A DNA stretch of 64,000 bases from Candidatus Woesearchaeota archaeon (GTDB lineage: Archaea > Nanobdellota > Nanobdellia > Woesearchaeales > JACPIF01), in the NCBI GenBank assembly GCA_016188215.1, contig JACPIF010000003.1, forward strand, positions 35,388 through 99,387, given 5' to 3'. Both the position numbers and the translations under genes were made by a program. A model generated the notes under the pieces. It saw only the letters and a program-made list of their open reading frames with translations. It was not told where the DNA came from and ran no database searches. Of this stretch, positions 101 through 16,878 are shown piece after piece (the first letter of the stretch is position 1; each line of letters begins with the position of its first letter).

Positions 101-3100
101 TCAGATATTCACCACTGGCTTGCCTGATCTCCCGCCGCCCCGCCGCGCTGGCGAGGATGTTGTTGTGCCGCCCACTCCCTTTCCTGTTCCGGAGCTGCCA
201 TCCTCTTCACCGCTGCCGCCCCAGCATGCCGGCATGAACAGCGTATAGGCGCCGCCGCACGGGTCTCCTATATTCATCTGCTGCGGCCCGTTTGCAATAA
301 GCGGGCTGCTGAGCTCATCGCCCTCAGAGACCCCGTCAAGGCATGGCGTTACTTTTCCAGTGAGTTCAATGAATTTGATTGAAACCTTATCATAGCTGTT
401 CTGGCTCTGTGCAAAGACCATGTTATTGCCTGCAAAATCAACAGGATCCCCGCCTGCCTCCACGCCAAATACGAAATCGCTGCCGTCGCCTGAATCAACA
501 AACAATGATCTCCTGCCTGAAGGGCCCGAGACCATTACCTTAAAGTTCATGTTGCAGCCCCTGCTCTCAATGCCAGGATTCACTTTCAGGCTGATCTTGT
601 ACAGGAACAGGTTCGGCTTTCTTTGCCCTGTGGACGCGTTGAAATCTATGATAGTTGCCTTCTCCCCTTCAACGTGGGCAAATGCCCCTGAAAGCGAGGT
701 TGCAAATGCAGCTCCTAGCTCATGTATGTCAGTTGCCCTGTCCGCGCATATCTGCGAAGTCCAGCCGTACAATTCCCCGGTCGGCCCGCCAAGTATGTTG
801 AGAAGCGTAGGGTCATCAACCCATGGGGCAGGCTCACTATACAGGAATGAGAAGAATGAATAGCCTTTAACTGCGGTCTGGATCTCCCTCAGCATATCTC
901 CGAACCAATTGAACCTTTGGACAACTGTAGGCTTGATTCTTTCTAATTGTTCTTTTGTTAGCTGAACTTTAATCCCTTGCTTTTCTAAATTATTAAGCAT
1001 TTGCGTTCCGCCAGTGACAGCCCAAAATGAAAATCTATCCAATGAAGTGCCAAGGAGATCGAGATATCTTATGTCCAATTGTCTTTCTTGGAGGTTAGGA
1101 TCATTCAGTCCAAAAGGTATTTGAGAAGCAACTGTCTCAACAACTGTTACACTTCCGTCAGGATAGAATTTAAGTGAAAGGCCATTAGCTGTGTTGTAAG
1201 TGATTATATCTGTTGAAGTTTTCGTAAAAGTAGAGCCATCATTTGCAATAAAAAGCTTTACACTTACTTCCAGTCCGTTTTTAGGATCACGATACTTCAA
1301 GTCGCTCTGGCTTTCATAAAATCCGTTTGGTTGCTTGTTTAAAGGAAGCAACAATGGATTTGCTTCTGCATAAACTGAAATCGGATAATAAAGCTTGCCA
1401 TCATCTTTGTTCTTATAAACGAGTGTATCACCTATTTTATAGGTATTGTACTTATTTTCATCAAAGGAAATAGTTCCGGAATAGTCATTGATAGTTGCTG
1501 GGGCGAGAGCAGGTGGCGGAGCACTAGGTACAGGAGTGCCGGCTGACACAGGAGCCTCCTTTTGCACTGGCGAAATTACCAAATTGCCAGTTCCTAGAGT
1601 ATTCTGAATCTTTGCGATTATCCCGGTTGTATCACTTCCAGACAGTTTTTCAGTAATGTATCTTAAATCAGATGCACTCAATGGATTACCACTGGAATCT
1701 GTAAATGTTATCTCTTGAATAGTCTTTTTTTGTTGAGTTTGTCCTGTATCTGCTACTGTAATAACATCATCTCCACGTTGTTCCCTTTGAACCTCTTTAG
1801 TAACTATTCTAACATCATAATTAATACCTTTCTCGTCTACAAATCTAACTAGCCGTGTGTCTTCACTTCTCTGCTCTGAATAGAATATACCAGTGGACAG
1901 CGCCGTATATGTATTTCCATCCAGCCCTTTATACGGCACAGCAGTTATCTCGCCCTCTTCCCTTTTAATATCTCCAGACACTTCAAATAATTCTCCGCCA
2001 ATATCAATGAACATCTTTTTATCTTTGTCCTGATATATCTGATATTCTTCTTTTTCATTCACGGTCATCTTTTCTACAGGCTTCAGCTTAAGAGCCGCTA
2101 TTTTCGCAGCTTCAGCCTCTTTAGCCTTACTCAAAGCCCTTTGTTGAACATCTCTAAAGCCAATTGGAACTTTCAACGGATTATTTGGATCTGCAGCATC
2201 CTTGGAAACTTGAGTTGCTCCACTGCTTGACACCAGTATAAGCCCTGTAAACCTGTGATAAGTATTAGTCAATACATTATTTCCTGCCTCATTAAACCAA
2301 ACCGGATTTGGAACTCCTCCTTGGCCATAGATGGCGTCATCAGTTATAGGAACCCCCCCTGAACTTATTGGCCTTAGAAACCAAAAACCTGTTGTTGGAT
2401 TTTGATCGGCTCTATAATAAACTTCAACCTGATTAACTTTATTTGGATCTTTGAGATCCTTGTGTTCCTCCAATCTGCCAACTATATCCCCCTTCTTCAG
2501 TTGTCTTTCAACACTATCAGAATCCACAAATGTAAGCGGAGGAATTGCAGAGGTTGTTCCGGTGGTTGCGGAATCTGGTGTTCCTGGGCGCACAACTGCA
2601 GCTTCAGCGGTTCCGGGTTTTGGTCCAGATTGGTCATCTTGAGGTTTTGCATCCCCGCTTGGAAAAGCTGCTGCAACAGCTTCGGGATAATATCTTCTCA
2701 GAATATTATAACCCTGCTCTTCGTTTGCATTTGCCAGTTCTGGAAAAAGGGAACTTTCTGATACATCAAACCATGTCAACTTAAAAAAACGTGACATTTG
2801 CCACTTTTGGGAATCTTTATTGAATCTGAACCAGAAAGATCTATACCATATACTGATTACTGGTTGTGAACTGGTCTCGAGTACAGGTGTTTCAGGCGTC
2901 TGCTGTCCTTTTTTAGCATTAGAGTTTTGAGCTTCTGGTGGTCTTTCCTCAGCAGCCCTTTCTGGAAACGGTCCTGGCCTGTCAGGCTCTCCGCCAGTGC
3001 TTGCTTTTGTGGAAGGCTCTGTTGGATATTTCTGTCCAAAAGTAAATGCTTTAAATCCGCCTTCATCTACGCATCCTTGCGGATTAATGCAGTACCATTC

Positions 3101-4540
3101 ATCTGCTCTTTGCTCCCAATCAGTAGCTTGCCCTATTGGTGAGGTAGTTGATGGTCCATCTCCAGGTGGCGTTTCGGCAGATGCTGGAGGCACTAATTGT
3201 GGCAATTCAGGTGTTTTTGCCCCTTCTGTTTTAGCCCATTCCTCCTGCAATTTTCTTAGCGCTTCGTAGCTTTTTGGAGAACTTGCGATCTTATTTACTT
3301 GGTCTTGAGTTAGAACAGTATTTCCACCCCAGTCATCAATAACAAATTTGCCATTTTCAATCTTTACCTTGGAATCTCCAAGAAATCCAAAGGTTGCTTT
3401 GGCTCTTAAATCGCCATTTCCATCTACATAAACTAGGTTCCCCCCGCCGATGTCAGTTGGATTCTCTTTAGTGAATTGGTTCTGTGGTTGTGGAGAGGCA
3501 CTTGCATCGTTCGCTTTTGGTTGGTCATCTACATTAGAACCAGCGGATTGAGCGCGGGCAGTTTCTCCACTCTCAGCCGATTGTATGTCTGTAATCACAA
3601 TGTCAATACTTTGCTTGATGATAACTCTGCTTTTACCTGACAGAGGCAGTCCACTACTGTCGACATCAGACTTATAATAAAATTGAGGTACGCCTCCAAC
3701 ATCAACAACTACAGCTTCTCTTCCCGCTATAGTAATCCTATAGCTATTGATTATTGATGGATCATTTACGCCAAATGCGCTGCTTACTACATCATATGCA
3801 GTAGCACCAGGATCTTTATCATAATCATATGAAACTGTGTAGATGCCACCTTCTGTTCGTATAGCTTCATACTCAACGCCCCTAGATTGTGTAGAGCCTC
3901 TTCCAATATTGTACCCCTCCATAAAGTGATTAGTTCTTCCTATGCCCGCGCTTCCCTCGTGTAAGCTTCCTTTAAATATGTCATTCGCTGGATTTTTTGG
4001 ATCTGCCAGATAAGCCTCAACTTGCCTGGAGGTAGGCATATTTCCAGGTCCTCTATTCCATGCTACCTGCAATTGATTCGCTCTTATATGATCTTGTGCG
4101 GAGGAATCAAACCTAGAATTTCTCATGAGATCTTGTGTTATCCATCTTGCAGCAATTTCTAATGATCCCTCCAAAGTATTCACATCATACATGCCATTCG
4201 GATTATACCTTCTGTCATTATATCTGGCGCCAGTTAAACCAAAAATGCCAGTGCTACCTGCTTTCTGATCAGCAGGATGATTGTGGTTGACATTTGTCCC
4301 ATAAGTTGATTCAGATGCATACAGCCCTTCCAAGGTTCCCCTAGGTATTTGAGGATATTTCACATAAGTTGCATCAAATTTTGCTTTAACTTCAGGCGGT
4401 ATAAGAGGAGAAACTGCCGCAGCCCCGCTCACCTTATTTCCATAATCTCCGCTAAGCAGAACCCCGCTGACTAGCATGATAACTGCTATGACCGCCAGCA
4501 TCTTCTGGAATTCGCTCATTGCCTTCTTGCTCTTTCTCAT
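101..4540 (-). CDS. giant secreted protein (1479 aa) with an N-terminal lytic transglycosylase/lysozyme-like (SLT-type) domain; the rest is probably beta-rich repeat/adhesin-like
   Basis: Uninterrupted 4.4 kb ORF with an N-terminal hydrophobic signal/anchor (MLAVIAVIMLVSGVLL). 'YASESTYG...STGIFGLTGA...DVNTLEGSLEIAARWI' matches the SLT catalytic ES motif plus a GLMQ-like segment. The start lies 4 nt after the upstream gene's stop. Confidence 0.85.
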   Translation of the reverse strand: MRKSKKAMSEFQKMLAVIAVIMLVSGVLLSGDYGNKVSGAAAVSPLIPPEVKAKFDATYVKYPQIPRGTLEGLYASESTYGTNVNHNHPADQKAGSTGIFGLTGARYNDRRYNPNGMYDVNTLEGSLEIAARWITQDLMRNSRFDSSAQDHIRANQLQVAWNRGPGNMPTSRQVEAYLADPKNPANDIFKGSLHEGSAGIGRTNHFMEGYNIGRGSTQSRGVEYEAIRTEGGIYTVSYDYDKDPGATAYDVVSSAFGVNDPSIINSYRITIAGREAVVVDVGGVPQFYYKSDVDSSGLPLSGKSRVIIKQSIDIVITDIQSAESGETARAQSAGSNVDDQPKANDASASPQPQNQFTKENPTDIGGGNLVYVDGNGDLRAKATFGFLGDSKVKIENGKFVIDDWGGNTVLTQDQVNKIASSPKSYEALRKLQEEWAKTEGAKTPELPQLVPPASAETPPGDGPSTTSPIGQATDWEQRADEWYCINPQGCVDEGGFKAFTFGQKYPTEPSTKASTGGEPDRPGPFPERAAEERPPEAQNSNAKKGQQTPETPVLETSSQPVISIWYRSFWFRFNKDSQKWQMSRFFKLTWFDVSESSLFPELANANEEQGYNILRRYYPEAVAAAFPSGDAKPQDDQSGPKPGTAEAAVVRPGTPDSATTGTTSAIPPLTFVDSDSVERQLKKGDIVGRLEEHKDLKDPNKVNQVEVYYRADQNPTTGFWFLRPISSGGVPITDDAIYGQGGVPNPVWFNEAGNNVLTNTYHRFTGLILVSSSGATQVSKDAADPNNPLKVPIGFRDVQQRALSKAKEAEAAKIAALKLKPVEKMTVNEKEEYQIYQDKDKKMFIDIGGELFEVSGDIKREEGEITAVPYKGLDGNTYTALSTGIFYSEQRSEDTRLVRFVDEKGINYDVRIVTKEVQREQRGDDVITVADTGQTQQKKTIQEITFTDSSGNPLSASDLRYITEKLSGSDTTGIIAKIQNTLGTGNLVISPVQKEAPVSAGTPVPSAPPPALAPATINDYSGTISFDENKYNTYKIGDTLVYKNKDDGKLYYPISVYAEANPLLLPLNKQPNGFYESQSDLKYRDPKNGLEVSVKLFIANDGSTFTKTSTDIITYNTANGLSLKFYPDGSVTVVETVASQIPFGLNDPNLQERQLDIRYLDLLGTSLDRFSFWAVTGGTQMLNNLEKQGIKVQLTKEQLERIKPTVVQRFNWFGDMLREIQTAVKGYSFFSFLYSEPAPWVDDPTLLNILGGPTGELYGWTSQICADRATDIHELGAAFATSLSGAFAHVEGEKATIIDFNASTGQRKPNLFLYKISLKVNPGIESRGCNMNFKVMVSGPSGRRSLFVDSGDGSDFVFGVEAGGDPVDFAGNNMVFAQSQNSYDKVSIKFIELTGKVTPCLDGVSEGDELSSPLIANGPQQMNIGDPCGGAYTLFMPACWGGSGEEDGSSGTGKGVGGTTTSSPARRGGGRSGKPVVNI

Positions 4541-4544
4541 ATTC

Positions 4545-7500
4545 CTAACCCAGGCTCGGAGTCCCCTCGCTCACCTTCGGCTTATTTTCATCCTGCAGCG
4601 CTTCCTTGCATGCCGCATCAGTATCAATCTTCAGCTGCTCCCAGACAGGCTCGCATCTTGCAGGCCCAATGCCCAGGTCGCATAGCACATCAGTGACCCA
4701 GCTGATAGTATCTGCAGTATAGCATGCATAGCAAAATCCAGTAGGCGTTAGCTCATTCATACAATTTAATTTGTAGCACACTATGGAAAGGCCAGTGCTC
4801 ACCAGCTCAAGCGGATGAGAAAGCGCTTTGGTGACAGCCTGCCCTATGCTTGTTAAAGCCGCCGCGAACGGAATTATATTGAACACCTGCCCCCACACGT
4901 ACTTGCAATATGCATAATCCCTTTGTGCAGTGCATAAGTAAAGCGGCATGCCGTTCTTGGTCTCCTTAAGGCAGTTGATGTACCTGCAGTCTATGACCCT
5001 TGCTTTCTGCAGATTATAGATAACCCCAGGCAGGCATAAAAACGCAACGCTACCCACCAGGCTTTGCTTTGGATCAATATTGGCAACATAAAACTGAGCC
5101 CATGCTTTTGGATCTTTGGTATTTTTCCCACGCACAGAACTAGGCACATTTGCATTGCTTAAGACATCAAAATACGGATTTTTTGCCCACTCTGCATCAA
5201 TAAGTGAAGCATCACTCCCGCTCTTTGACTTGGTGCCTGCTTCTTTTCTTAGCCAGTCTCCCCAGAAGAACTGGCAGTTTATTGCTTTGCAGAACTGCGC
5301 TGTCCGCGCCTGGAATCCAGTCTTTGCAAGTTCAACTGAAGCAGTTGTGCTGACTCCAAGGGCCTTGGCAAGCGGGCAGCAGAACCCTCCGCCAAACCCT
5401 CCCAAGGCAATTCCCGCCTGGCAGCATGATTTTAATTTTTCAGTCCCGCCAAAGAGAATATTCCATACAGTAAAAAGATAGCTAGTGAACTTGCACACAG
5501 TCTGCGCAAAATTCAGTATCTTCTGGGCAGTCTCCATCCAGGTGGCCTGAACAATCCAGCTGTCCCTTACCCTTTCAATCTCATCATTGATCCTTGAGTC
5601 AATAGTTCCAAGGGGATTGTTGAAGTAATTGATGGTGAACGTGATATTCTCCGTCTCTTCAGGAGAAAGCTCCCTGCCATCAACCAGCGTCCTCACCTTT
5701 ACAGTGCAGCTCACCTTTACAGAATCCTGCGGAGGCAGCGCTCTCTCCATGGTGAACTTGAAGAATGTATTGTAGGGAAGCGTGCTGTCAACTTTTGGAG
5801 TTATAGGATTGAAGTTGAAAACCTCAGGCTTGTTGCCGGTAGTTGAGCTGAGCAGCGCAGCAGTATCATCAGAGCATCTGTCAAGCGTAACTGATACAGG
5901 CCATCTTGTTAGGGAGCTTTCAGCTGTTGCAAAAGATGAAGGTGTTCTTGTCAAATTGGTATTTGCATCAACACTTAAGGAAACCGGGAACCATACGAAA
6001 GGGTCGTATCTTGTAACGAGCTGCTTGTCAAGCGCAGATGGTGATGGGCTTCCAACCGCAGCTTTCCAGTAATTCACCGGCTTGTCGCTTATCCCCGTTA
6101 CAGTAATGGCCTTTTTGTACACCAAGGCATTGCCCGCAATGTCGCTGAAATTAAACACAAGATCTTTTGCGATGAACCCCTTTATATTCACCTCATCAGT
6201 GTTCCATGCGCAGCGCCAGTTCCCTGCCGCATTCCTGGTGCAGTCATCAGCCTCCAGTATGCTCGCATTCTTGATGAATCCAGATGCGTCTAGAAACGCC
6301 CTGATCCCGTTCTCTTCAGCTAATTCAGCAGTAATTGCCAGTGCGTTTCCTGTTAAAATCAATCCAGGCAGCACGCCCTGTGATCCTGCAACTGCGCTTA
6401 CATTTACAGAAAGCACCGCAGGAGCTATGGTATCAAGCACAAGCGCGTCTATCCCTGCCTGTGCAGCCAAGGGATTGCCTGCCTTATCCTTGGTCAGGGG
6501 ATTAATGCCTATATATTTCTGCCCTGAAGATCCCGAAATAGGTATTGAATTCCAGACGCAGGTAACCTGCCCTTCGCCCGTGCAGCTGTCCGCAGGAACC
6601 GCATTGCCCGCGCCCAATCCTGAGGCATCAAGCAGGACATCTTTTGCATCCAGTCCAGAGCCAGTCTCAACAATTATTGCCTCAATCCTTTTTTTATTTG
6701 CACTGATATAGTAAGTCCCGTTTGAATCAGAAGATTCAGTATCTATATCGCTTACCACAGGCCCTTGCGTATCAATGAAGATATTGTAAACAAGCGATTC
6801 GGATGCATTGTTGCCTGCCTTGTCTGCTGCTTTGAAAGAAAGCGTGAGGGCAGTGCTCCGTGTAGTGTCAGGAGGCGCGTTCAGGTCAAGCGTCAATCCA
6901 TTCCAGAAGCATCGTGTCCTGTTTTGGTTAAGTGCCGAGCAGCTGCTTCTGGCAACATCACCCACAGTAACGCGTGGTGTCAATGCATTGAGATTCGCCT
7001 TGACTGTGTTCAGGTCCAGGCCGATATCCTGCTCAATGATGTCTACGCTTACTGTTATGCCTGTCAGTGCCCTGTTTGACACACCTGTGACAGCTCCTGA
7101 AGAGCTTGTGATGCTTACATTCTCAAAATCAGGAGGAGCCGTATCCGGCCGCAGCACTTTATCAAGGGCTATTATTCTTGTCCGCCTATTGCCTGCAGTA
7201 TCAGAAGCCTGCGCTGTGACAGACCCGGAAAATGTGGCAGTGTTCACCCTTATCAAGGCAGTGTTCAATGAGCAGCGCATCATGGTTTCATTTACAGCAG
7301 CGCACGAAGGTGTTGTTGAGCCGCCCCGCACGTCAAGGCTGCTCAGGTCAATGGCGAATGAATTTGTGTCAAGGAGTTTGTCTGACACCTCAAAGCTCAT
7401 GCGCGCCAGGTATGTCTCCGGCACGAAAAAATCAACGAAGGAGCCGTCCTGCTTCCTGATGTCAAACTCTTTAAGCTCAATGCTCGGGCTTGAGAAGTCA

Positions 7501-8273
7501 GTGGTAAAGCTCATGCTCTGGCCGGCCCGCTGCCCGAACAGGTCAAACGCAGCCAGCGTTGCAGTGGGATTGCCCTCTGCGAATGCATTGCTCAACTCCT
7601 GGACTGAGCCGCTGTAGCTGCATCCGCTCGGGAATATCTGGAAATTCCTGGAATAGTTGCCTGACGAGAGCGTGATATAGTTGAGCAGGCCTGTGCATTC
7701 AGCAGCGCCGCTTGATACCCTTGCCTTGTCAGTGAGTGTAAACGAAAAGGTGACGTTCTGGTTTGCCCCGTATTCTGACTTATCTGCCGAAGATGTAACC
7801 ACAGGCGCTTCTGTATCGCAGATTGGTGTTATGGTTTTTGCGTCTTTAAGCACGTCAGACTGGTTTAGGAGCCTTACGGTAAAGCTGAATTCAGGGCAGA
7901 TGATAAAGTCAGACATGTTCCTTGAGAATGTGCAGTCGTAGCTCCCGTCCGCCACCGGTGTGCAGGAGTCAAATGCAAACCCGCTGGAGCCTCCCGGCCC
8001 GATGAGCCGCACCTTGGTATTGTTCACAGATTCTGTATCAATAAAAGCGCGTGCAATGAACGTGTAGTAATCGGCATTGCTCCTCACATACCCGGTCACG
8101 CCATCCTTGCCGCGCACATTAAGGTTGCTCAATCCATTAGTTGCCGCCAGCGCATCTGCAGAATATATGGGCAGCATTATCATTAATGCGGCCAGGAAAA
8201 TTGCAATCCCTTCAATACCGCTAAAGCGATTCCGGAACTCTGTTTCAATACTCACCTTTCTTTTTGGGTTCAT
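4545..8273 (-). CDS. giant secreted surface protein (about 1240 aa), paralog of 16878..22175, with a conserved Cys-rich C-terminal domain
   Basis: The N-terminus aligns with 16878..22175 ('LNVRGKDGVTGYVRSNADYYTF' versus 'LTVKGRDGIKGYVRSNIDFFTF'), and a shared C-terminal motif reads 'CRYINCLKE...YAYCKYVWGQ' versus 'CMYRNCLQHE...CLYVDGAQ'. The start is assigned to the Met before the signal peptide at 8273 (the ORF track extends to 8327); a TATA-like box lies about 30 bp upstream of 8273. Confidence 0.85.
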   Translation of the reverse strand: MNPKRKVSIETEFRNRFSGIEGIAIFLAALMIMLPIYSADALAATNGLSNLNVRGKDGVTGYVRSNADYYTFIARAFIDTESVNNTKVRLIGPGGSSGFAFDSCTPVADGSYDCTFSRNMSDFIICPEFSFTVRLLNQSDVLKDAKTITPICDTEAPVVTSSADKSEYGANQNVTFSFTLTDKARVSSGAAECTGLLNYITLSSGNYSRNFQIFPSGCSYSGSVQELSNAFAEGNPTATLAAFDLFGQRAGQSMSFTTDFSSPSIELKEFDIRKQDGSFVDFFVPETYLARMSFEVSDKLLDTNSFAIDLSSLDVRGGSTTPSCAAVNETMMRCSLNTALIRVNTATFSGSVTAQASDTAGNRRTRIIALDKVLRPDTAPPDFENVSITSSSGAVTGVSNRALTGITVSVDIIEQDIGLDLNTVKANLNALTPRVTVGDVARSSCSALNQNRTRCFWNGLTLDLNAPPDTTRSTALTLSFKAADKAGNNASESLVYNIFIDTQGPVVSDIDTESSDSNGTYYISANKKRIEAIIVETGSGLDAKDVLLDASGLGAGNAVPADSCTGEGQVTCVWNSIPISGSSGQKYIGINPLTKDKAGNPLAAQAGIDALVLDTIAPAVLSVNVSAVAGSQGVLPGLILTGNALAITAELAEENGIRAFLDASGFIKNASILEADDCTRNAAGNWRCAWNTDEVNIKGFIAKDLVFNFSDIAGNALVYKKAITVTGISDKPVNYWKAAVGSPSPSALDKQLVTRYDPFVWFPVSLSVDANTNLTRTPSSFATAESSLTRWPVSVTLDRCSDDTAALLSSTTGNKPEVFNFNPITPKVDSTLPYNTFFKFTMERALPPQDSVKVSCTVKVRTLVDGRELSPEETENITFTINYFNNPLGTIDSRINDEIERVRDSWIVQATWMETAQKILNFAQTVCKFTSYLFTVWNILFGGTEKLKSCCQAGIALGGFGGGFCCPLAKALGVSTTASVELAKTGFQARTAQFCKAINCQFFWGDWLRKEAGTKSKSGSDASLIDAEWAKNPYFDVLSNANVPSSVRGKNTKDPKAWAQFYVANIDPKQSLVGSVAFLCLPGVIYNLQKARVIDCRYINCLKETKNGMPLYLCTAQRDYAYCKYVWGQVFNIIPFAAALTSIGQAVTKALSHPLELVSTGLSIVCYKLNCMNELTPTGFCYACYTADTISWVTDVLCDLGIGPARCEPVWEQLKIDTDAACKEALQDENKPKVSEGTPSLG

Positions 8274-8298
8274 TATTTTCTGACTTTTTATCTGGCTT

Positions 8299-8321
8299 TT
8301 ACATATTTTACATATTTTAAT
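8299..8321 (-). promoter_or_regulatory. TATA-like box(es) upstream of the 4545..8273 gene
   Basis: Minus-strand 'TAAAATATGTAAAATATG' lies 30-45 bp upstream of the 8273 ATG. Confidence 0.4.
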
Positions 8322-8330
8322 GAGCATACT

Positions 8331-8435
8331 GAGCGCGTAATGCGCGCTCTACCATAGGGAAGTCCCCGAACAGCAAGGCTACAGCCAGAATCGGGGACTG
8401 TTCACAGCAGCCGAGATTCATCTCGGCTGAGTCAT
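8331..8435. repeat. modular intergenic hairpin repeat, copy A (GCGCG hairpin, inverted gtccccga..tcggggac core, CAGCCGAG-atttatc-CTCGGCTG hairpin)
   Basis: Hairpin gagcgcg-taatg-cgcgctc; a core 'gtccccgaacag...aatcggggac' that is the reverse complement of the cores at 38876 and 45157; 'tgttcacag' followed by the hairpin cagccgag-attcatc-ctcggctg, which is identical to the one at 45297. Confidence 0.75.
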
Positions 8436-8480
8436 GCTCGTTTCTAGTTTTACCCGTTCCTGGTTTTATTATCATAGTCT

Positions 8481-10643
8481 TCACCTATAAGTCGGCTCAA
8501 TGCTTGCCCTGAACTGGGCTGCGAGGATCTCTGATTTCCCAACCTGGCTGATATCTTCAACGTCTAATGAGTCAAATGATGCGCTGTCCGGGCTGCTTAC
8601 AGCATAAAATATAATCTGCTGCGCCCTGTCAAGGTCAGCCTGGCTCAGTACCAATTCCAGGGTTGTTGATCCTTCGTTAAACACTCCGGTAAGCGGGTCA
8701 ATGTGCACTTTCTGCCCAGCAACAATCTTGTCCTTGAACTCCACATAAGTCCTGCCTTGTGCATCCGGCAGGCCATAATAAAGCTCAATGCTCACCGTAT
8801 ACTTGCCCGGCACCAATCCAGGGAGGACCTCTACGCTGCTCTCATTTCCATAATAGATTACCGTTGCAAACAGGTCAGGCTCTGCCTCAGCCTCCTTTAT
8901 CTTCTGGATACTAACAACTGCGTATTCATTCTTCAATAATGGAGCGGGTGATGCATCAAAGTTCCAGGTGCCTCCTGATTTAATGTTCCGCTTCTTCATT
9001 ACCGCGATATTCTTTGCCCTGTACGGCTCAACTGATACAGAGACCTTTCCGTTGTTACATACCACATTCTTCTGCCTGCACATTGCATGGTTCTCAGGAA
9101 GATCGCACCGCACGCTAAGGCTCTGCGGGGAGCTGAACACCTCATGGCCTGAGACTGTAAGCGTGCATCCGCTGCCCACGCATTGCGGCAGGCTGACTTT
9201 GCCTGCGCTTATCCTTCCCACAGAGCAGGCCTCTCCTTCATGCCCATAGGCAATCTCTGCATCCTGTGACAGGTTGCCCGAGCTTGTCGCTATGCTTACA
9301 TTAGCGCAGAACAGCCTTGGATCGCAGAGCAGCGTCCCTGTTGGCGGCAATGTTGCCGGCAGCCCAGTGCCTGTGCAGTTCAATGGCTTGTTGCCCCGTA
9401 CATTTGATTCAAGGTTGAACATGAAATGGTAGCCGCGATTATTCAGTGCAGCAGGATCATAAATATCAATCCTGACAGGATATGAGACATCATAGTAGAA
9501 ATTATAGCGCTGCAGGCCCAGCCAGCTGAAGAGTCCTGTTATGCCCGCTGTCTCCGGCCCGATGAAGTCGCCTCTCACTCCCCTGCCTTTTATGTCAAAA
9601 TAAATGGGCCACCAGCTGAGGTATTCAAAAGTCACCTTCAAGTCTGCATATGTTTCATTTACAGGAACCGTAGCCTTCTGGTAATAGCCTCCTCTTTCAT
9701 CATAGTTGCTTGTCCTCCACACCTGCAGGAATTGGGTATAATAAGGCAATATTGAAAACTGCATGAGGTTCTTTGCATCAGACTTCTGCCAGTACTCCGG
9801 CTTCTTGCTAGGGTCAAAAACACTGGCAGCAGTCGGCGGCAATGCTTCTGCATCAGGCCCCAACCCGAATGCAGTGACCTGCTCAAGTGTCCATCTCTCA
9901 AGGAACGGGTATTTTATCTCGGTATTGGTTATTTTTGAGGCAAACTCGTACAGCCTTGCAATCGGCACATTGACAGAAGCAGTGAACTGTTTCATGGATA
10001 TCTCAGAATTCTCAAGCACTACGCTTATCGGGTAATTGAGGATTACAGAAACTCCGTCACCGGCAACAATTACATTGCTCGTTGCAGGCCCAAGCTCCTG
10101 GACCACAAATCCGTCCTGTTTAAGGCTCCTGAACCCCTGCAGGCAATTCCCCAGATTTTCATTGATATAGCGGCCGAGCTGCCCTTCAATGCTTGGCTCT
10201 CCCTGGTTTTTCCTGAGGTTGGGCCGTTCTGAGCCGCATTGGCAGTTTTTAGTGCACAGGTTATTGCTCTTGAAATGCCACCAGTATGCGATGGCTGTAT
10301 CCTCATTGCTGGGATCAAATCGCACAGCCCTGCCTTCTGTGGGCTCTGCAGGATCTGATGCTATCCCATACCTTCTGGGCTCTATATATCCGCCTGTCTG
10401 GCCGATCCGTACAAGTCCTTCTTCAGCAACTTTTGCAGCGCAATTCTCAACAAATACCTGCACTGCGTTGAACTGGCTTGGAATCTCCTGCTGCTCTTCA
10501 ATCTGCCCTTCGGGCAATGACAATCTTTCCGTGCTGACAATGTAGAGCGTTACACCGCCCAGTAGCAGGATGCCGAGAATTATAAATAAGGTAGTTTGAG
10601 CCCTAGTACTAGCTAAAACCCTACACCCTCTTTTGCATACCAT
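8481..10643 (-). CDS. membrane-anchored large extracellular protein (720 aa), paralog of 12093..14372
   Basis: One N-terminal TM helix (LFIILGILLLGGVTLYIV); a shared 'IAYWWH...NLC' region with 12093..14372 ('IVYWWY...NLC'); Cys-rich. Confidence 0.85.
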   Translation of the reverse strand: MVCKRGCRVLASTRAQTTLFIILGILLLGGVTLYIVSTERLSLPEGQIEEQQEIPSQFNAVQVFVENCAAKVAEEGLVRIGQTGGYIEPRRYGIASDPAEPTEGRAVRFDPSNEDTAIAYWWHFKSNNLCTKNCQCGSERPNLRKNQGEPSIEGQLGRYINENLGNCLQGFRSLKQDGFVVQELGPATSNVIVAGDGVSVILNYPISVVLENSEISMKQFTASVNVPIARLYEFASKITNTEIKYPFLERWTLEQVTAFGLGPDAEALPPTAASVFDPSKKPEYWQKSDAKNLMQFSILPYYTQFLQVWRTSNYDERGGYYQKATVPVNETYADLKVTFEYLSWWPIYFDIKGRGVRGDFIGPETAGITGLFSWLGLQRYNFYYDVSYPVRIDIYDPAALNNRGYHFMFNLESNVRGNKPLNCTGTGLPATLPPTGTLLCDPRLFCANVSIATSSGNLSQDAEIAYGHEGEACSVGRISAGKVSLPQCVGSGCTLTVSGHEVFSSPQSLSVRCDLPENHAMCRQKNVVCNNGKVSVSVEPYRAKNIAVMKKRNIKSGGTWNFDASPAPLLKNEYAVVSIQKIKEAEAEPDLFATVIYYGNESSVEVLPGLVPGKYTVSIELYYGLPDAQGRTYVEFKDKIVAGQKVHIDPLTGVFNEGSTTLELVLSQADLDRAQQIIFYAVSSPDSASFDSLDVEDISQVGKSEILAAQFRASIEPTYR

Positions 10644-10733
10644 TTATAGGCCATAACCCGCCTTTTCTATATATAAAGGTTTCTGGTAGAGCTTTGTATA
10701 GTCTTGAAACCATAAAGAACCACTAAAACCCTG

Positions 10734-10878
10734 CAACTGGCTGCGCCACGCCACCCAGCTGCCCAGTCAGCTGGCACCTGAGGCGACCTCGCTTTTGCTC
10801 GGTCACCAGGTCCGTGATTGTGGATGTGCTCGCAGTTCGCGGACCCCGCACAGTCCAGTTGAGCTAGAGCTCAACTGG
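10734..10878. repeat. modular intergenic hairpin repeat, copy G (divergent core variant)
   Basis: 'gtccgtgatt...gttcgcggac' core variant, followed by 'cacagtccagttgagctagagctcaactgg' (compare 38917 'cacagtccagctctgctttagctgagctgg'). 'ggcgacctcgc..ggtcaccagg' recurs inverted at 59240-59290. Confidence 0.55.
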
Positions 10879-10943
10879 TTCCTGCTCATTTGTAGTAGAT
10901 AATCAAAATCAAAATTTTCCAACATGGGAAAGTAGCTACGAAG

Positions 10944-10952
10944 CTTTATATA
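10944..10952 (+). promoter_or_regulatory. TATA box for the 10976 gene
   Basis: 'ctttatata' centred about 28 bp upstream of the ATG. Confidence 0.5.
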
Positions 10953-10975
10953 CCTGCAATTCAGGAAATCTGCTA

Positions 10976-12100
10976 ATGCCGGATCCACGATTAACTGCAT
11001 ATATTCAGGCGCAGCTGCAGAAGGGAATTCCTCTCCAGGCTGTCCGTGATGGGCTGATTAAATATGGCTACCAGCCGCAGCAGGTTGATGAGGCATTCGC
11101 AGCCTTGCACCAGACTGTGAAGCATGAGCACAGCATATCAGCCGGGACACTGCTCAGTATCGCTGCAGTCCTTCTTGGAATTATCCTAGTCACTTTTGCA
11201 TTTTTCTACATGAATCCCTTCACTCAGAAGCAGGAGCAGCTTTTGGACATTAATCTGGAAGAGATTATCACTGAAGCCAAACCAGGAGAAACAATAACAT
11301 TCCTTAAGGAAATCTCAAATCTCGGCTCAGACAAGAGGTATGATATTACAGTTAAGCATGAGCTTCTGGATACGAGCGGCAATTTGGCTTATTCAAAGGA
11401 GGAAACCCTGGCAGTAGAGACCAAAAGCTCAACCCAGACAAAATTAAAGCTTCCTGCAACTATCAACGCATCATGCCAAGAGCTTACTGACGCCTGTCCT
11501 GCTTCATGTGACGATGAAAATCCCTGCACTGCTGACAGCTGCAGTCCTGCTACAGGCTTCCAGTGCGCTCATGAGCTGATTGCATTCTGCTGCGGCAACA
11601 ATGAATGTGAGGCAGATGAGACTTCAGCGACTTGCGCTACAGACTGCCTGGCATCAGAGCCCGATATCTCAATATTTGACCGTCTTGAAGACATAAAAAG
11701 TCTTGCAGCTTCCAACCCTGACAAGGCAAGCTCCCTGTGCGCCGGCATTGAGAGCAATACATACAGGGATGACTGCTACGGAAATGTAGGGAAAGTAAGC
11801 CGCGATCTGCGATTCTGCAGCCTCGTCAAGAGCGACCGCACCAAAGACGACTGTGTTTCAGAAATTGCCAAATCAAGCGGCAGCAGCAGCTTATGCCAGC
11901 AGATAACCCTTGACACAAGGCGTGATGCCTGCTACATGAACTTTGTCCTTACCGGGGACTACAGCGTCTGCGAAAGCATAGTTGATAATTATCTCAAGGA
12001 TTCCTGCAATGCGTTGAAGCAGAACGCTGAATTTCAGGCACATAGCCAGGCACAGCCTCAGGCCGAGCAGGCGACTGAAGAAAGCCAAACTCCTAGCTAA
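10976..12100 (+). CDS. single-pass membrane protein with a Cys-rich extracellular domain (374 aa)
   Basis: TM helix (LLSIAAVLLGIILVTFAFF), then repeated C-x-x-C/CC motifs (CPASCDDENPCTADSC...FCCGNNECEAD). Confidence 0.75.
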   Translation: MPDPRLTAYIQAQLQKGIPLQAVRDGLIKYGYQPQQVDEAFAALHQTVKHEHSISAGTLLSIAAVLLGIILVTFAFFYMNPFTQKQEQLLDINLEEIITEAKPGETITFLKEISNLGSDKRYDITVKHELLDTSGNLAYSKEETLAVETKSSTQTKLKLPATINASCQELTDACPASCDDENPCTADSCSPATGFQCAHELIAFCCGNNECEADETSATCATDCLASEPDISIFDRLEDIKSLAASNPDKASSLCAGIESNTYRDDCYGNVGKVSRDLRFCSLVKSDRTKDDCVSEIAKSSGSSSLCQQITLDTRRDACYMNFVLTGDYSVCESIVDNYLKDSCNALKQNAEFQAHSQAQPQAEQATEESQTPS

Positions 12101-14372
12101 ACACTGGTTCAAGCTGCGCTCTATAGCTTCTCGTAATGTTGGTGATGTCCCCGCCCCTTGCCACGTCATCAAACTTGCTTGGGTTGAATACCTTGTACAC
12201 ATAGAATGTTACCGCTTTGCCGGCATCAAGCGCATTCCTTGGCACGCTCCAATAGCCTGTTTCACTGCTCATTTCAACCCCTCCCACGATAACTGGCTTG
12301 ATAGTTACACTAGGTATGCTGCCTCCTGCAATCCCCGCGCCGCCGGTGGTATCAGTTGATATTACCGTGCCGTCCAGATTCTGGAGGACAGCCCTAACTT
12401 CATAAGTTCCGGGAGCCAGCCTGATTGTCTGCTTTGGATTTTTGGCATCCATTACAAGTGAGCTTGCAATACTGTCATCTTCACCACTCTGCCGCACCCT
12501 GCTTACTGTCAGGGTAACCTGCTCATTTCCAAGCAGTGATCGTGCAGCCTCCCTGAAATTACCTTGAGCCAATCCATTGATATCTGATGCAAGTATCTTT
12601 ACTTCCTTCTCTACAATGGTATCCAGTAACGTATTTACTGCTTTTGTTTCATCCGGCCTGCTCTCAAGCATCACTGTCCTTGCGATTACACCATCTTTCT
12701 CAAGCTTGAGTATTCCCTGCCCAATGCAGACCGGTAGTTTTCCTGCAAATTTCCCATCCGCGTCAGTAGAACCAATAGTGCAGCTCCTGTAATTCCCGCA
12801 GGTGTAGGTTATTGAAACGTCTGGGATAGGATTCTGTTTTGCATCCGAAAGTGCAAGCGTAAGGTTTGCCCCTATCCTTTGGTTTGCATTGCAGAGCAAG
12901 GTCTCAGGAATCCTCGGCCTTGACGTCTTTGCCGTGCTGGTTGTGCACGCGAAATTACAGGTTATGTTGTCTGCATACGACTTGCCGTTCAGCGGGCAGC
13001 TCCATGCAGCTCCTGATTGGGTACATCTGCCTAATGAAGGCTCAGAGCTTTTGAAGGTGACAGAAACCGAGTTAGGATCATAATACCCAAGAGTACCCCT
13101 TCCCTGGTTCCATTCGTGCAGGTCCTTGTTATCCCGTATATTTGCTTCAAGTGCAAACATAAAGGTATACCCATGCTCAGCTTCCGAGAGCAACGAAGCC
13201 TCGTCCCTGATGACGGCAATGACTGGATATGATATGTCATAAAAGAACTCGTAGTAGTTTGTCTGCTCAGGCGGCGCGAAGTTTGAGGGGAATGACTGTC
13301 TTATCACTCTTGGCTGTATTGTGCTTCCGCTCCTTGGCGTTATGTCAAAAAATATCTTCCAGCCGGGGTCATAAAGGAAGCGCATGCTGAGGCTTGGATA
13401 CTCAAAGGGCAGGTATGAAAGGTACAGGCTCTTGTAGAATCCCTGCACCACGCTGCCTGAAGCCTCAATCGGCTTTGCATCCTTTGTCTTGTCAACCTGG
13501 ATGATGTTTATGTTGGGCGCCAGAATCTCATTCCTGATCCTATCCTCAACTTTATCCTTAGGCCATGTCGCAAAAGTTTTCCTGCTGTCAATCCAGCTGA
13601 TTGGCGGTATCTTGTCTGCATCCGGTGCAGAATATACGCTGAACAATCCTAAGGTGATGTCCTCAAGGCTTAGATTATTGATCTCCTCAATCATGGTGAG
13701 CACTGCAACGTCATACACATGCTGGAAATCAAGGTCAAGGTTAATGCTGAAATCTGACATCTCGTACAGCGCATTCTCCTTTCTGATAGTGAGCGGATAC
13801 CTCACTCCAATGCTCACATCATCCCGGTTCACCCTTGCTGTTGCCCCGGGCTTGCCTTCCTGTATCTCAAATCCGGCCTCCTTGAATGAGGCAAACCTAT
13901 CGGTGCATTCCTGCAGGTTCCTGTTGACGTACACATCAACCTGCCTTTGGATATGCTCAATAGAAGGCATTAGGCTTGAGACCCTGCACTCACTGCACAG
14001 ATTGTCAGTCTGTAGGTACCACCAGTACACAATAGGGGTCGTATCTGCTAAAAATGCAGCGTCGCTTTCAGTCGGGCTATTCCTGTCAAGATTAAATGAG
14101 AATCCTGAAAGCTGCGCATCATACGGGTCTATATAGCCTCCATGCGCCCCAAGCTTCTTGAATGCCTCAATGCTTTTGGCCTTGATGCAGGAATCAACAT
14201 ACTCCTTGACCGGCTTGACCCACTCAGGCATTTCAAGCGCCATCACTGCCTCAATATCCTTCTCTTTTATTGTTGCATTGTAGTAGACAATGGTTACAGC
14301 TGCTGCTGCAAGGAACAGGATTCCGAGTATAATAAATACAGCAAGCTGTGATTTCTTGCTTTGAAATATCAT
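12093..14372 (-). CDS. membrane-anchored large extracellular protein (about 759 aa), paralog of 8481..10643
   Basis: Paralogy to 8481..10643. The start is assigned to the Met (MIFQSKKSQLAVFIILGILF...) immediately before the TM helix, as in the paralog. The ORF-track extension to 14672 runs through an intergenic repeat and is rejected. Confidence 0.8.
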   Translation of the reverse strand: MIFQSKKSQLAVFIILGILFLAAAAVTIVYYNATIKEKDIEAVMALEMPEWVKPVKEYVDSCIKAKSIEAFKKLGAHGGYIDPYDAQLSGFSFNLDRNSPTESDAAFLADTTPIVYWWYLQTDNLCSECRVSSLMPSIEHIQRQVDVYVNRNLQECTDRFASFKEAGFEIQEGKPGATARVNRDDVSIGVRYPLTIRKENALYEMSDFSINLDLDFQHVYDVAVLTMIEEINNLSLEDITLGLFSVYSAPDADKIPPISWIDSRKTFATWPKDKVEDRIRNEILAPNINIIQVDKTKDAKPIEASGSVVQGFYKSLYLSYLPFEYPSLSMRFLYDPGWKIFFDITPRSGSTIQPRVIRQSFPSNFAPPEQTNYYEFFYDISYPVIAVIRDEASLLSEAEHGYTFMFALEANIRDNKDLHEWNQGRGTLGYYDPNSVSVTFKSSEPSLGRCTQSGAAWSCPLNGKSYADNITCNFACTTSTAKTSRPRIPETLLCNANQRIGANLTLALSDAKQNPIPDVSITYTCGNYRSCTIGSTDADGKFAGKLPVCIGQGILKLEKDGVIARTVMLESRPDETKAVNTLLDTIVEKEVKILASDINGLAQGNFREAARSLLGNEQVTLTVSRVRQSGEDDSIASSLVMDAKNPKQTIRLAPGTYEVRAVLQNLDGTVISTDTTGGAGIAGGSIPSVTIKPVIVGGVEMSSETGYWSVPRNALDAGKAVTFYVYKVFNPSKFDDVARGGDITNITRSYRAQLEPVFS

Positions 14373-14394
14373 ATTTGAACGAGCCTTTCCTATT

Positions 14395-14600
14395 TTGGAA
14401 CTGGTCAAGCTGGGTAAACATTTCGAAAACCATGGTTTTCGGATGTCTCGAAACTTTGTTTCGAAACATGTCCGCGATTCAAGCTGTAAAGCCTTCTGTT
14501 CGCGGACCAACGTCACCACGGAGCGAAGCCAGAGGAACTTTAGTTCCTTGGCCAAGAAAATGCTATGCATTTTCTTTGGCTTTAGCTGAGCGACCACTTT
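14395..14600. repeat. modular intergenic hairpin repeat, copy B
   Basis: Hairpin tcgaaac-ttt-gtttcga; core 'gtccgcgattcaagctgtaaagccttctgttcgcggac' (a ccc/ggg to cgc/gcg compensatory variant of the 38876 and 45157 core); hairpin ccagaggaac-tttag-ttccttgg; hairpin gaaaatgc-tat-gcattttc. Confidence 0.75.
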
Positions 14601-14631
14601 GCTCATTTTTCCAATTTTAATACTCTTTATT

Positions 14632-15519
14632 TTATCCATGGTGTGAGTCTTTGAATTTCCTATAAGCCTCATAATAGTAAAACTTGATCCACGCGGTTTC
14701 CATGATGAACAGCAGCAGCAGGATCAAAAGCGCGGCATCCAATGAAAGATAGATTGCAAGCTGCGCCGATATGCTGAAAAGCACTCCTGAAAACAGCACT
14801 ATGATTATCATAAAGAATGTGAAAAAGAATACAGCAGGCATGAACCTGTAAAACCTGAATATAGCTGTGTGCAGCGCATGCTTCGTATTGCCCCAGGCGC
14901 TTCTTGCTTCAGTATAGCTTGCATGCATGACCATCAGCAAATAAAGGAAAGCAATGACCCAGAGCTGTGCAGAAAGTACGTCAAGTGGGCTCCTCAGGAA
15001 ATAGAGGCAGCCAAAAAAGGTAAGTATAGCTGCCCAGAACCACATAAAGTTTATGGCAAGAAATCTCTTGAAGTAAAGCCTTGAAAAATCAGTTCTCTTG
15101 ATTTTTGCCCATGCATACCCCTTAATCAGCGACACTAAAAACACGGCAAAAGTAAACATTACGGCAATTGTCGCTACAGTCTTCCGCAAAAAGCTGCTGA
15201 GCGCAGCTCCCAAAAGATACACGCCATCGTATAATTCACTGATTACCTCAGGCGTAGCCTGAATCCTGGGGTCATTCATGAACTGGAATACCGTAATGGC
15301 CTTTGGCAGCGCTACATTTGCCTGCTCTGCATAGGAATTGAGCAGTTGCTTGAAAATTCCGGCAGTGAGCAGCAGCCCAATAATTAGCAGAATGTCCATG
15401 GCAAGCACAATGAAATACCGCCTGTCAAGGTCAAGGCTTCTCATGAATGCAGTGCTGTAGAACCATGCGATTAGATTGGTTCTTTCCTTCACCTTCCTGG
15501 CTTTCTTATGCGCTGCCAT
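14632..15519 (-). CDS. polytopic membrane protein (295 aa)
   Basis: Six to eight hydrophobic helices; 1-nt overlap with the downstream ORF. Confidence 0.75.
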   Translation of the reverse strand: MAAHKKARKVKERTNLIAWFYSTAFMRSLDLDRRYFIVLAMDILLIIGLLLTAGIFKQLLNSYAEQANVALPKAITVFQFMNDPRIQATPEVISELYDGVYLLGAALSSFLRKTVATIAVMFTFAVFLVSLIKGYAWAKIKRTDFSRLYFKRFLAINFMWFWAAILTFFGCLYFLRSPLDVLSAQLWVIAFLYLLMVMHASYTEARSAWGNTKHALHTAIFRFYRFMPAVFFFTFFMIIIVLFSGVLFSISAQLAIYLSLDAALLILLLLFIMETAWIKFYYYEAYRKFKDSHHG

Positions 15520-16253: not shown

Positions 16254-16361
16254 ATGAAATCAAAAAAATATGAAGATTTTTGGGAAAAACTGGAAGAATG
16301 GCAAAAAGATCCAGATTTTAGGAAAGCAGTAGCAAGATTTGTCAAGATAACAACCTCCTGA
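16254..16361 (+). CDS. micro-protein 2 (35 aa, MKSKKYEDFWEKLEEWQKDPDFRKAVARFVKITTS)
   Basis: Paralog of micro-ORF 1 with its own TATA box; its 3' end overlaps the 3' end of the convergent PIN gene by about 20 nt. Confidence 0.5.
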   Translation: MKSKKYEDFWEKLEEWQKDPDFRKAVARFVKITTS

Positions 16362-16878
16362 TTTCTTTTATGAATTTTGTATAGTCCTCAAAATACGGCG
16401 TTCTGATATTATTTAATCCGTTTACTATTTTGTAACTCTTAACTGCTGTTTCGCTTGCCATTGTTTTGTTGTCTTCTGAATAAATTATATCAAAATTCTT
16501 CATGCTCGATCCTGCCACTATAATAAAATCATTCAGAATTTCATGCTCCTTTGAAGAACCTCCTAATTCTTTATATACTTTATAATACTTTCCTGCGAGA
16601 TCTTTCATCTCTTGGTCTATGACAAGTGTATGATTCCCCACCAGCAAATCATAGAAATTAAGTACCGTTAATCTTACCTTTTCATTACCAATAATAGTTT
16701 TGCGTGAAGTCGCTCTTAATTCCTTTCTTATGACGTCAAATCCGTAAATTATAAAATGGCCTTTCAATACGCCTCTATCAACAGCTTCACGTATAACTTT
16801 CTGATGAAATTCCTCTAATATCCTGCCATAAATATTAGTATCAAGAATTACTCTTTTTGCAGGGCTATCTTTACGCAT
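16342..16878 (-). CDS. PIN-domain (VapC-like) protein (178 aa)
   Basis: N-terminal 'RVILDTNIY' carrying the conserved acidic residue of PIN domains, plus a later 'IIYSEDNK'. The gene is AT-rich relative to its neighbours. Its start codon overlaps the stop of the 1765-aa gene by 1 nt (TGATG). Confidence 0.6.
   Translation of the reverse strand: MRKDSPAKRVILDTNIYGRILEEFHQKVIREAVDRGVLKGHFIIYGFDVIRKELRATSRKTIIGNEKVRLTVLNFYDLLVGNHTLVIDQEMKDLAGKYYKVYKELGGSSKEHEILNDFIIVAGSSMKNFDIIYSEDNKTMASETAVKSYKIVNGLNNIRTPYFEDYTKFIKEIRRLLS

Follow-up and report, generated by a model that had tools for sequence, protein, structure and literature searches.

What would an archaeon that has no murein of its own do with a domain resembling bacterial lytic transglycosylases at the N-terminus of a very large secreted protein? 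The question is raised by a window of 64,000 nucleotides (i.e., the whole stretch of DNA analysed here), in which an earlier note had called by eye an SLT-type lysozyme-like domain on a 1479-aa archaeal protein. The protein is indeed there, with the quoted strings in its N-terminus and a signal- or anchor-like segment ahead of them (Table 1); its gene starts 4 nt past the stop codon of the gene upstream, which encodes a 1260-aa protein, and an identical 1479-aa protein is encoded on a Logan contig of 41 kb. An archaeal origin is borne out by the MetRS of the window, which is 60-76% identical to those of Woesearchaeota and Nanoarchaeota MAGs; going by gene sequences, the host is a Woesearchaeota-type DPANN archaeon, and the MAG with the best MetRS match also contains the closest ortholog of the 1479-aa protein, P0003. 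We consider it probable that the ~175 residues following the export signal belong, as a highly diverged member, to the GH23/SLT lysozyme-like superfamily and are carried on a giant DPANN surface or secreted protein, which would cut murein together with cluster partners and would derive from bacteria or phages.

Table 1. Features of the 1479-aa protein, its gene neighbourhood, and the MetRS gene, in window coordinates
Feature	Position	Strand	Basis or remark
Gene of predicted exported multidomain protein, 1479 aa	101..4540	(-)	ORF call
Cys-containing conserved C-terminal domain, residues ~1186-1479	104..985	(-)	75-76% identity to ortholog P0003
Small domain, residues 229-319, counterpart of P0004 residues 814-900	3584..3856	(-)	blastp E 2e-6
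Putative divergent GH23/SLT-type lysozyme-like domain, residues 41-215	3896..4420	(-)	Core modelled confidently ~45-183
AWNRGPG, residues 160-166, motif III (AYNxG) position	4043..4063	(-)	Tyr -> Trp
GIFGLT, residues 98-103, motif II (GLMQ) position	4232..4249	(-)	Alignment A3; Gln -> Gly
Glu77-Ser78, putative catalytic E-S (motif I)	4307..4312	(-)	C-terminal end of modelled helix 69-77
Hydrophobic segment, residues 14-30 (MLAVIAVIMLVSGVLLS)	4451..4501	(-)	Sequence; Lys-rich N-terminus precedes
Secreted protein with Ig-like regions, 1260 aa, 37 Cys, upstream partner	4545..8327	(-)	Weak Big_3_3 match
Protein with N-terminal hydrophobic anchor, 720 aa, cluster partner	8481..10643	(-)	Homologs in L094, L001/L002
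Single-pass membrane protein, 374 aa, Cys-rich ectodomain, cluster partner	10976..12100	(+)	Dicty_CTDC repeat match
Paralog of 720-aa anchored protein	12093..14672		
MetRS	23184..25301		

A hydrophobic segment behind a Lys-rich start is the expected look of a signal peptide or signal anchor, and the segment probably serves either for export or to hold the N-terminus in the membrane; a single-sequence AlphaFold model of the N-terminus (pLDDT 38 overall) places a helix at residues 10-30, and the same Lys-rich, then hydrophobic, layout is common to the relatives P0001, P0003, and P0004. Were the anchor to stay uncleaved, the domain would sit beside the archaeon's own membrane, an awkward location for attacking another cell. 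C-terminal to the domain, the protein reads as long and adhesin-looking; phmmer searches of this remainder against PDB sequences gave no match, and the C-terminal domain matched nothing in Pfam or PDB.

Assignment of the N-terminal domain had to proceed through its relatives, as neither residues 1-240 nor the full protein gave anything relevant in Pfam, NCBIfam, or PHROGs. The HMM search that the earlier note had proposed came out negative for the window protein itself, with no match to the PF01464 profile even at E<=10; phmmer of the domain against PDB sequences was likewise without a match. Homologs were nonetheless recovered from a library of 1.8 billion proteins, at E 3e-36, 1.5e-22, and 3.8e-13, the last of these being P0004, a rare homolog with two LysM domains and a Peptidase_M15_3 domain besides. 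The N-terminal domain of P0004 scores 21.4 bits against PF01464 SLT (gathering score 21.3; E 1.9e-4), with the alignment spanning profile positions 7-107, i.e., 101 of 117. Membership of the window domain in PF01464 is thus supported in a wholly transitive manner, because it is P0004 that reaches the gathering score while the window domain gives no match. A local four-sequence SLT HMM ranked the two in the same order (p = 2e-4 for P0004, 0.04 for the window domain). Billions of sequences yielded about a dozen relatives in total; a third homology search with a 10-sequence profile added one sequence and provided no bridge to annotated SLT proteins, and neither a tblastn search of 50,697 phage genomes nor a family-profile scan of metagenome contigs returned a relevant match. 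Against the PDB, the family profile placed c-type lysozymes at a non-significant E of about 1, behind an unrelated top match.

The by-eye call draws its strength from P0004 and from the residue at the heart of motif I. YASESTYG lies at residues 74-81, and its Glu77-Ser78 pair is invariant in all 10 aligned relatives (alignment A3) as well as in P0013 (11 sequences in all), just as the putative catalytic Glu should be; the pair is kept across two subfamilies that are only ~25% identical, phage-borne members included. When the family was aligned by hhalign with four E. coli lytic transglycosylases, the E-S of Slt70 fell on Glu77-Ser78, and motif I, the GLMQ position, and the AYNxG position were all collinear with those of Slt70, MltC, MltD, and EmtA, at a P of 0.079 that is not significant. 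The remaining motif calls need amending. In AGSTGIFGLTGA (residues 94-105), GIFGLT does occupy the motif II position, in line with the GLMQI that the E. coli enzymes have there, but without the Gln; NTLEGSLEIAARWI (residues 121-134) forms the helix following motif II and corresponds to no named motif. Among relatives in alignment A3, GPMQIN is found in P0004 only, with the others having G-P-L-G-I or Y-V-F-G-L. A third family motif, VAWNRGPG (residues 159-166), had been overlooked; its counterpart is AYNRGPG in P0001 and P0004 and I-Y-N-R-Y in the phage-type subfamily.

Could the SLT likeness be a chance effect of short motifs on an unrelated fold? Direct searches with the window protein gave no significant match to HMMs, PDB sequences, or Foldseek structures, and the hhalign P of 0.079 and the low pLDDT of the single-sequence model point the same way. 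However, homologs at E 3e-36 to 3.8e-13, taken together with the invariant E-S, mean that the quoted motifs are more than chance, and we regard this explanation as highly improbable. An AF2 model of the domain built on 10 sequences (pTM 0.68; block-mean pLDDT about 74-93 across most of the core, unreliable at loop 40-56 and in the tail from 144, domain numbering) predicts a lysozyme-like α-helical fold with a substrate cleft. Foldseek comparison of the model with PDB and BFVD retrieved MltE, g-type lysozyme, MltF, phage SLT, tape-measure, and phage internal virion proteins, all with E-values >0.01; the best structural matches were murein lytic transglycosylases.

Relative to the family-1 lytic transglycosylases (PF01464; GH23; E. 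coli Slt70, MltC, MltD, and MltE/EmtA; P. aeruginosa Slt and MltF), the window domain is ~10-15% identical, separates motifs I and II by a longer loop, has Gly in place of the Gln of GLMQ and Trp in place of the Tyr of AYNxG, and stands at the N-terminus of 1479 aa in an archaeon lacking murein. It also differs from goose-type lysozymes and GH23 chitinases, as no conserved second acidic residue matching the g-lysozyme Asp residues was identified in it. Catalysis may be weakened or lost, because of the Gln-to-Gly and Tyr-to-Trp replacements and because P0003 keeps the first half of the domain only, with motif III gone. The same three observations, along with the adhesin-like remainder of the protein, would suit a lysozyme-like fold that is catalytically dead or weak and acts as a glycan-binding, adhesin-type module docking the giant protein on the wall of a partner. 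The invariance of Glu77-Ser78 across 11 sequences and two such distant subfamilies is, however, unlike a pure binding module, and P0004 carries separate LysM binding modules beside the domain, which implies that binding is not the task of the domain itself; a loss of function of this kind is therefore an unlikely, if serious, alternative to an active enzyme.

An active domain could in turn act on another glycan, such as chitin-like GlcNAc polymers, an envelope glycan of an archaeal host, or the pseudomurein of a methanogen partner. We judge this rather improbable, given that the top structural matches are murein lytic transglycosylases, that relatives pair the domain with Peptidase_M15_3 (a murein peptidase family), and that relatives reside on phage contigs beside endolysin-like genes. 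Pseudomurein, which the earlier note had also entertained, was rejected as a target, with no supporting evidence and unfavourable chemistry: it has beta-1,3 links and resists lysozyme, and we know of no GH23 enzyme that cuts it. Bacterial cell walls are the most likely target of the domain.

With murein as the substrate, the following sequence of events can be envisaged. The 1479-aa protein would be exported via its N-terminal signal, and the lysozyme-fold cleft would bind a beta-1,4-linked GlcNAc/MurNAc strand. Glu77 would then serve as the single general acid/base and cut the MurNAc-GlcNAc bond of bacterial peptidoglycan, in the manner of either a lytic transglycosylase or a muramidase. The remaining ~1260 residues, which apparently comprise linkers, the Cys-containing conserved C-terminal domain, and several small domains that match no database entry, would tether or position the enzyme. 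Together with co-conserved giant Cys-rich surface proteins, the 1479-aa protein would constitute a cell-contact or wall-breaching apparatus used against a bacterial partner or prey, with the enzymatic domain most likely acquired by these archaea from bacteria or bacterial phages.

The gene neighbourhood bears on such partners. Synteny with three other surface-protein families is kept in three loci: homologs of the 1260-aa protein are encoded beside P0001 (L003, E 5e-35) and in the P0004 locus (L094, E 7e-76), those of the 720-aa protein in L094 (38.5% identity, E 3e-164) and L001/L002 (E 1e-46), and those of the 374-aa protein in L001/L002 (E 4e-30) and L094 (E 1e-51). The anchored proteins of the cluster are of 720 and 859 aa.

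Might the gene lie outside the surface machinery of the cell and instead be part of a mobile element of the archaeon, such as an integrated virus, with a product that is, for instance, a lysin of the virion or resembles a tail protein? Outside the archaea, the nearest relatives are small proteins encoded on phage-like contigs, with one contig of the short subfamily being an IMG/VR virus that has a LysM/endolysin-like neighbour; phage tape-measure and internal virion proteins are among the structural matches; relatives have Hint domains, as well as a nuclease ORF; a VapBC pair lies downstream; and the ortholog locus is rearranged. Nevertheless, (i) PHROGs gave no match to the 1479-aa protein or to those neighbours of its relatives that are homologous to its cluster partners, (ii) the neighbours in the window have no virion-family match in Pfam, (iii) synteny extends over three contigs, distantly related and up to 141 kb long, and the cluster adjoins housekeeping genes such as MetRS, (iv) its composition is that of the rest of the window, and (v) a murein hydrolase would be of no use to an archaeal virus. 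We thus hold a mobile-element gene to be very unlikely. A prophage origin of the cluster was likewise rejected, no viral hallmark genes having been found. Unlike the virion- or transfer-associated SLT-type lysins of phages and plasmids (phiKZ gp144, phi6 P5, T7 gp16, and tape-measure SLT domains), the 1479-aa protein is encoded in the genome of a DPANN cell, with housekeeping genes beside its gene and no virion genes nearby.

A cellular muralytic protein acting with its neighbours leads to a bolder and doubtful proposal, namely that the SLT-like giant protein and three co-conserved partners (the 1260-aa Ig-like Cys-rich, 720/859-aa anchored, and 374-aa Cys-rich membrane proteins) form an undescribed, dedicated DPANN cell-surface apparatus to attach to and breach bacterial walls. 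In some lineages, a Hint/BIL autoprocessing domain would release a muralytic "warhead," and the module itself would have been captured from bacteriophages. If true, this would be direct molecular evidence of some Woesearchaeota parasitising or preying on bacteria, not archaea. To our knowledge, no Woesearchaeota host has been identified by experiment.

Large extracellular lytic-transglycosylase proteins are already known in Woese- and Pacearchaeota (Castelle 2021, PMC8204110; fam00969), as are GH23 proteins of these archaea recognised by CAZy GH23 (Vigneron et al. 2022, PMC9723730); later papers credit Rinke 2013 with first noting such proteins, and Castelle 2015 for AR20. The role proposed for them is to bind or degrade bacterial cell walls (PMC8204110, PMC9723730). 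A further paper reports archaeal peptidoglycan hydrolases with the ability to kill bacteria (PMC12352652). The window protein resembles the Woese- and Pacearchaeota proteins in its Woesearchaeota-type DPANN host, in combining great length and predicted export with a lytic-transglycosylase-like domain, and in its proposed role, the likeness to fam00969 being drawn from the description in the 2021 paper. Whereas the published proteins (at least those of Vigneron et al. 2022) were caught by standard annotation, the 1479-aa protein escapes Pfam, NCBIfam, and PHROGs. It is hence a new, hard-to-detect, divergent member of an already described kind of DPANN protein, and we infer an extracellular muralytic domain directed at bacteria, in agreement with the published proposals for Woesearchaeota.

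The concept being already in the literature, the gain is incremental. As domains such as this one can be too diverged for standard HMM annotation, Pfam and CAZy surveys probably undercount them. The window supplies a small domain (~175 aa) in which E77 is the defined candidate for the catalytic residue, and a conserved gene cluster that suggests partner proteins. Ultimately, a murein-cleaving surface enzyme would be one of the few hints at the level of sequence that the interactions of some DPANN archaea are with bacteria, not archaea.

The 1479-codon ORF encodes a protein with an export-type N-terminus, Lys-rich and then hydrophobic for 17 residues (14-30 of the translation); the string KKA(M/I)(S/T)EFQK directly before the hydrophobic segment is common to this protein and its closest ortholog, P0003. 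The stop of the 1260-aa gene, upstream on the same strand, lies 4 nt before the start of this gene, and the protein is also called on a 41-kb public contig. The earlier note had seen, by eye, an SLT-like domain here, and the strings it quoted occur in the translation: YASESTYG (residues 74-81), AGSTGIFGLTGA (94-105), and NTLEGSLEIAARWI (121-134). To these we add VAWNRGPG (159-166), absent from that note, which is the counterpart of motif III in the family-1 lytic transglycosylases.

Neither residues 1-240 nor the full protein had a relevant match in Pfam (even at E<=10), PHROGs, or NCBIfam, and the protein had none among PDB sequences or, by tblastn, in phage genomes. About a dozen relatives emerged when 5.8 billion proteins were searched by word index and 1.84 billion representatives were scanned exhaustively with HMMER; they fall into two groups: (i) archaeal-type proteins, giant or truncated, with the same N-terminal anchor as the window protein, i.e., P0001 (302 aa; E 3e-36), P0003 (829 aa; E 1.5e-22), and P0004 (2677 aa; E 3.8e-13), and (ii) P0007-P0013, about 200 aa each, with the pattern LAMQESSMG ... 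GYVFGLT. In A3, an alignment of 10 sequences, the E77 and S78 positions are invariant, as are Y59, P63, G68, L70, E71, T122, G125, A130, and A131; E-S is also present in P0013.

The HMM search proposed earlier thus failed for the window protein itself but succeeded for its homolog P0004, the isolated N-domain of which carries canonical G-P-M-Q-I and A-Y-N-R-G-P-G motifs and matches PF01464 (SLT) over profile positions 7-107 of 117 (E 1.9e-4), at 21.4 bits barely exceeding the gathering score of 21.3. Also in P0004 are LysM (two copies), PT-HINT, and Peptidase_M15_3 domains, LysM and M15 being modules related to peptidoglycan. By eye only, its residues ~1010-1100 (SIWASETGG ... GDYQIQ) resemble a second lysozyme-like segment. 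Against Slt70, MltD, EmtA, and MltC, hhalign placed A3 with E-S on E-S, G-x-F-G-L on G-L-M-Q-I, and A-Y-N-R on A-Y-N-x-G, at a score (P = 0.079) that alone is not significant; with an HMM built from the four enzymes, p was 2e-4 (P0004), 6.5e-4 (P0001), and 0.04 (window domain).

A single-sequence AlphaFold prediction was not usable (pLDDT 38). With A3, AlphaFold2 gave a model of pTM 0.68 and block-mean pLDDT of about 74-93 for the greater part of the core (domain residues about 5-39 and 57-143). Apart from a short beta hairpin this model is all-alpha, and one helix has Glu77 at its C-terminal end. Its structural matches were P. aeruginosa Slt (8.4), phiKZ gp144 (8.3), phi6 P5 (8.2), a further transglycosylase (8.2), MltE (8.1), Slt70 (7.8), MltC (7.8), and MltF (7.7), then a GH23 chitinase, EtgA, g-type lysozyme, Tse3, and FlgJ; nearly all others listed are lysozyme-like folds. 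Foldseek E-values were weak (at least 0.2 against PDB, at least 0.03 against BFVD) for lists of the same kind, with MltE, g-type lysozyme, MltF, and SLT, tape-measure, and tail-lysozyme proteins of phages. The modelled fold is lysozyme-like, and a chain of homology joins the window domain to SLT. With an HMM match via P0004, structural matches, and a conserved E77, the lysozyme-like assignment therefore stands, and for fold and family alone our confidence is high; chance resemblance, to which the hhalign and Foldseek values would leave room, is on this evidence highly improbable.

Compared with canonical lytic transglycosylases, motif II of the window domain is GIFGLT, with Gly for Gln, motif III has Trp for Tyr, and a longer loop, poorly resolved in the model, separates motifs I and II; P0003 retains E-S, diverges past residue ~148, and is without motif III. 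Because of these changes, catalysis may be weakened or lost, or specificity altered. A non-catalytic binding module, with which the altered motifs would agree and the invariant E77 less so, seems to us unlikely, and another glycan as substrate, given the matches to murein-cleaving enzymes, distinctly so. We favour, with some reserve, a diverged, exported SLT-type domain that would act outside the cell, bind a GlcNAc/MurNAc glycan, and cut bacterial peptidoglycan through Glu77, as either a transglycosylase or a hydrolase, the long C-terminal body and partner proteins holding it at the site of contact with a bacterial cell.

Features by coordinates (window positions unless a locus is named)
Feature	Position	Strand	Best match in other loci (E)
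1479-aa protein, export-type N-terminus	101..4540	minus	
1260-aa protein, Ig-like, 37 Cys	4545..8327	minus	7e-76
720-aa protein	8481..10643	minus	3e-164
N-terminus of 720-aa protein	10500-10643	minus	
374-aa Cys-rich membrane protein	10976..12100		1e-51
859-aa paralog of 720-aa protein	12093..14672		1.55e-43 (L094); ~1e-32 (L001/L002)
178-aa protein, PIN-like by eye	16342-16878		
MetRS	23184..25301		
VapB/PIN (VapC) pair, beyond window position 1	L090 7485-8080		
P0001 locus with Hint ORF	L001 2087-4077		
P0004 with Hint (residues 463-591)	L094 2867-10900		
P0003 locus (GCA_964602245.1, CAZRPY010000019.1)	L095 1-3380		
Large-ORF block (IMGVR_UViG_3300050139_000038)	L096 515-6462		

The SLT-like gene is co-conserved with three families in three loci, i.e., the window (4545-14672, both strands), L001-L003 (P0001), and L094 (P0004, a 141-kb contig), with homologs of the neighbour genes flanking it in varying order. 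The cluster is thus conserved, and its members look like one surface module of giant proteins; the 720/859-aa paralogs are anchored proteins, and Pfam assigned the neighbour families nothing beyond weak Ig-like or repeat matches. The N-terminus of the 720-aa protein (...STRAQ TTLFIILGILLLGGVTLYIV) resembles, by eye, an archaeal class III (type IV pilin-like) signal peptide.

In P0001 and P0004, the muralytic (plus LysM) part is followed immediately by a Hint-type (bacterial-intein-like) autoprocessing domain; the window protein is without one. The P0004 Hint domain ends in VHNA, without the Cys/Ser/Thr that splicing needs, which suggests cleavage, not splicing. The L001 Hint ORF resembles a decayed or split intein: it ends after its TPYH block, and a DUF1016/YhcG nuclease ORF overlaps it.

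The P0003 locus is a rearrangement hot spot. P0003 has residues up to ~148 and the C-terminal domain (76% identity to that of the window protein), with the middle wholly absent; rearrangement and shortening together suggest fast evolution. An upstream 42-aa ORF there duplicates the signal peptide, and a homolog of the 178-aa PIN-like protein is inserted between this ORF and P0003. The VapB/PIN (VapC) toxin-antitoxin pair directly downstream of the 1479-aa gene is also kept there.

Among the ~200-aa relatives, P0009 has a near-identical copy on a 45-kb IMG/VR viral contig that also encodes a LysM/endolysin-like protein, a RecE-like exonuclease, and a resolvase, and P0007 adjoins a GroES-like and an endonuclease VII-like gene. 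On phage-like contigs (L096, L091, L092), this subfamily ends a block of large unannotated ORFs, which in L096 opens with a 485-aa LysM/endolysin-like protein. These ~200-aa proteins may degrade cell walls as virion-associated components of an unknown phage group. A mobile-element or viral origin of the window gene itself, which these relatives would suit, is very unlikely beside the conserved cluster.

The window methionyl-tRNA synthetase (MetRS) is 60-76% identical to that of MAGs labelled Woesearchaeota, Nanoarchaeota, or Nanoarchaeia and much less similar to that of other archaea; Methanosarcinales labels on some top-matching MAGs are taken to be submission-default mislabels. P0003 and one of the two best MetRS matches (both 76%) belong to the same assembly (GCA_964602245.1, contig prefix CAZRPY). 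By these gene similarities the host is a DPANN archaeon of Woesearchaeota type, and "archaeon" was correct. Across window 1-64000, the minus strand holds most of the long ORFs, GC skew is below zero nearly throughout (its cumulative value declining steadily to -2.65), and many ORFs of 170-1765 aa are without a Pfam match, as is typical for DPANN genomes.

Genes for a "large lytic murein transglycosylase" (GH23) occur in Woesearchaeota MAGs, for which predation on bacteria was proposed (Vigneron et al. 2022, PMC9723730); such proteins, large and extracellular, are also published for Woese- and Pacearchaeota by Castelle et al. (2021, PMC8204110), who note earlier sightings (Rinke 2013, Castelle 2015), and bacteria-killing peptidoglycan hydrolases made by archaea are reported in a 2025 PLoS Biology article (PMC12352652). 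The kind of protein is therefore already known; what this analysis adds is a divergent subfamily that standard HMMs miss, together with its altered motifs, the relatives borne by phages, and the conserved gene neighbourhood. The result, while no surprise to a DPANN specialist, is solid, helps annotation, and offers a handle for experiments.
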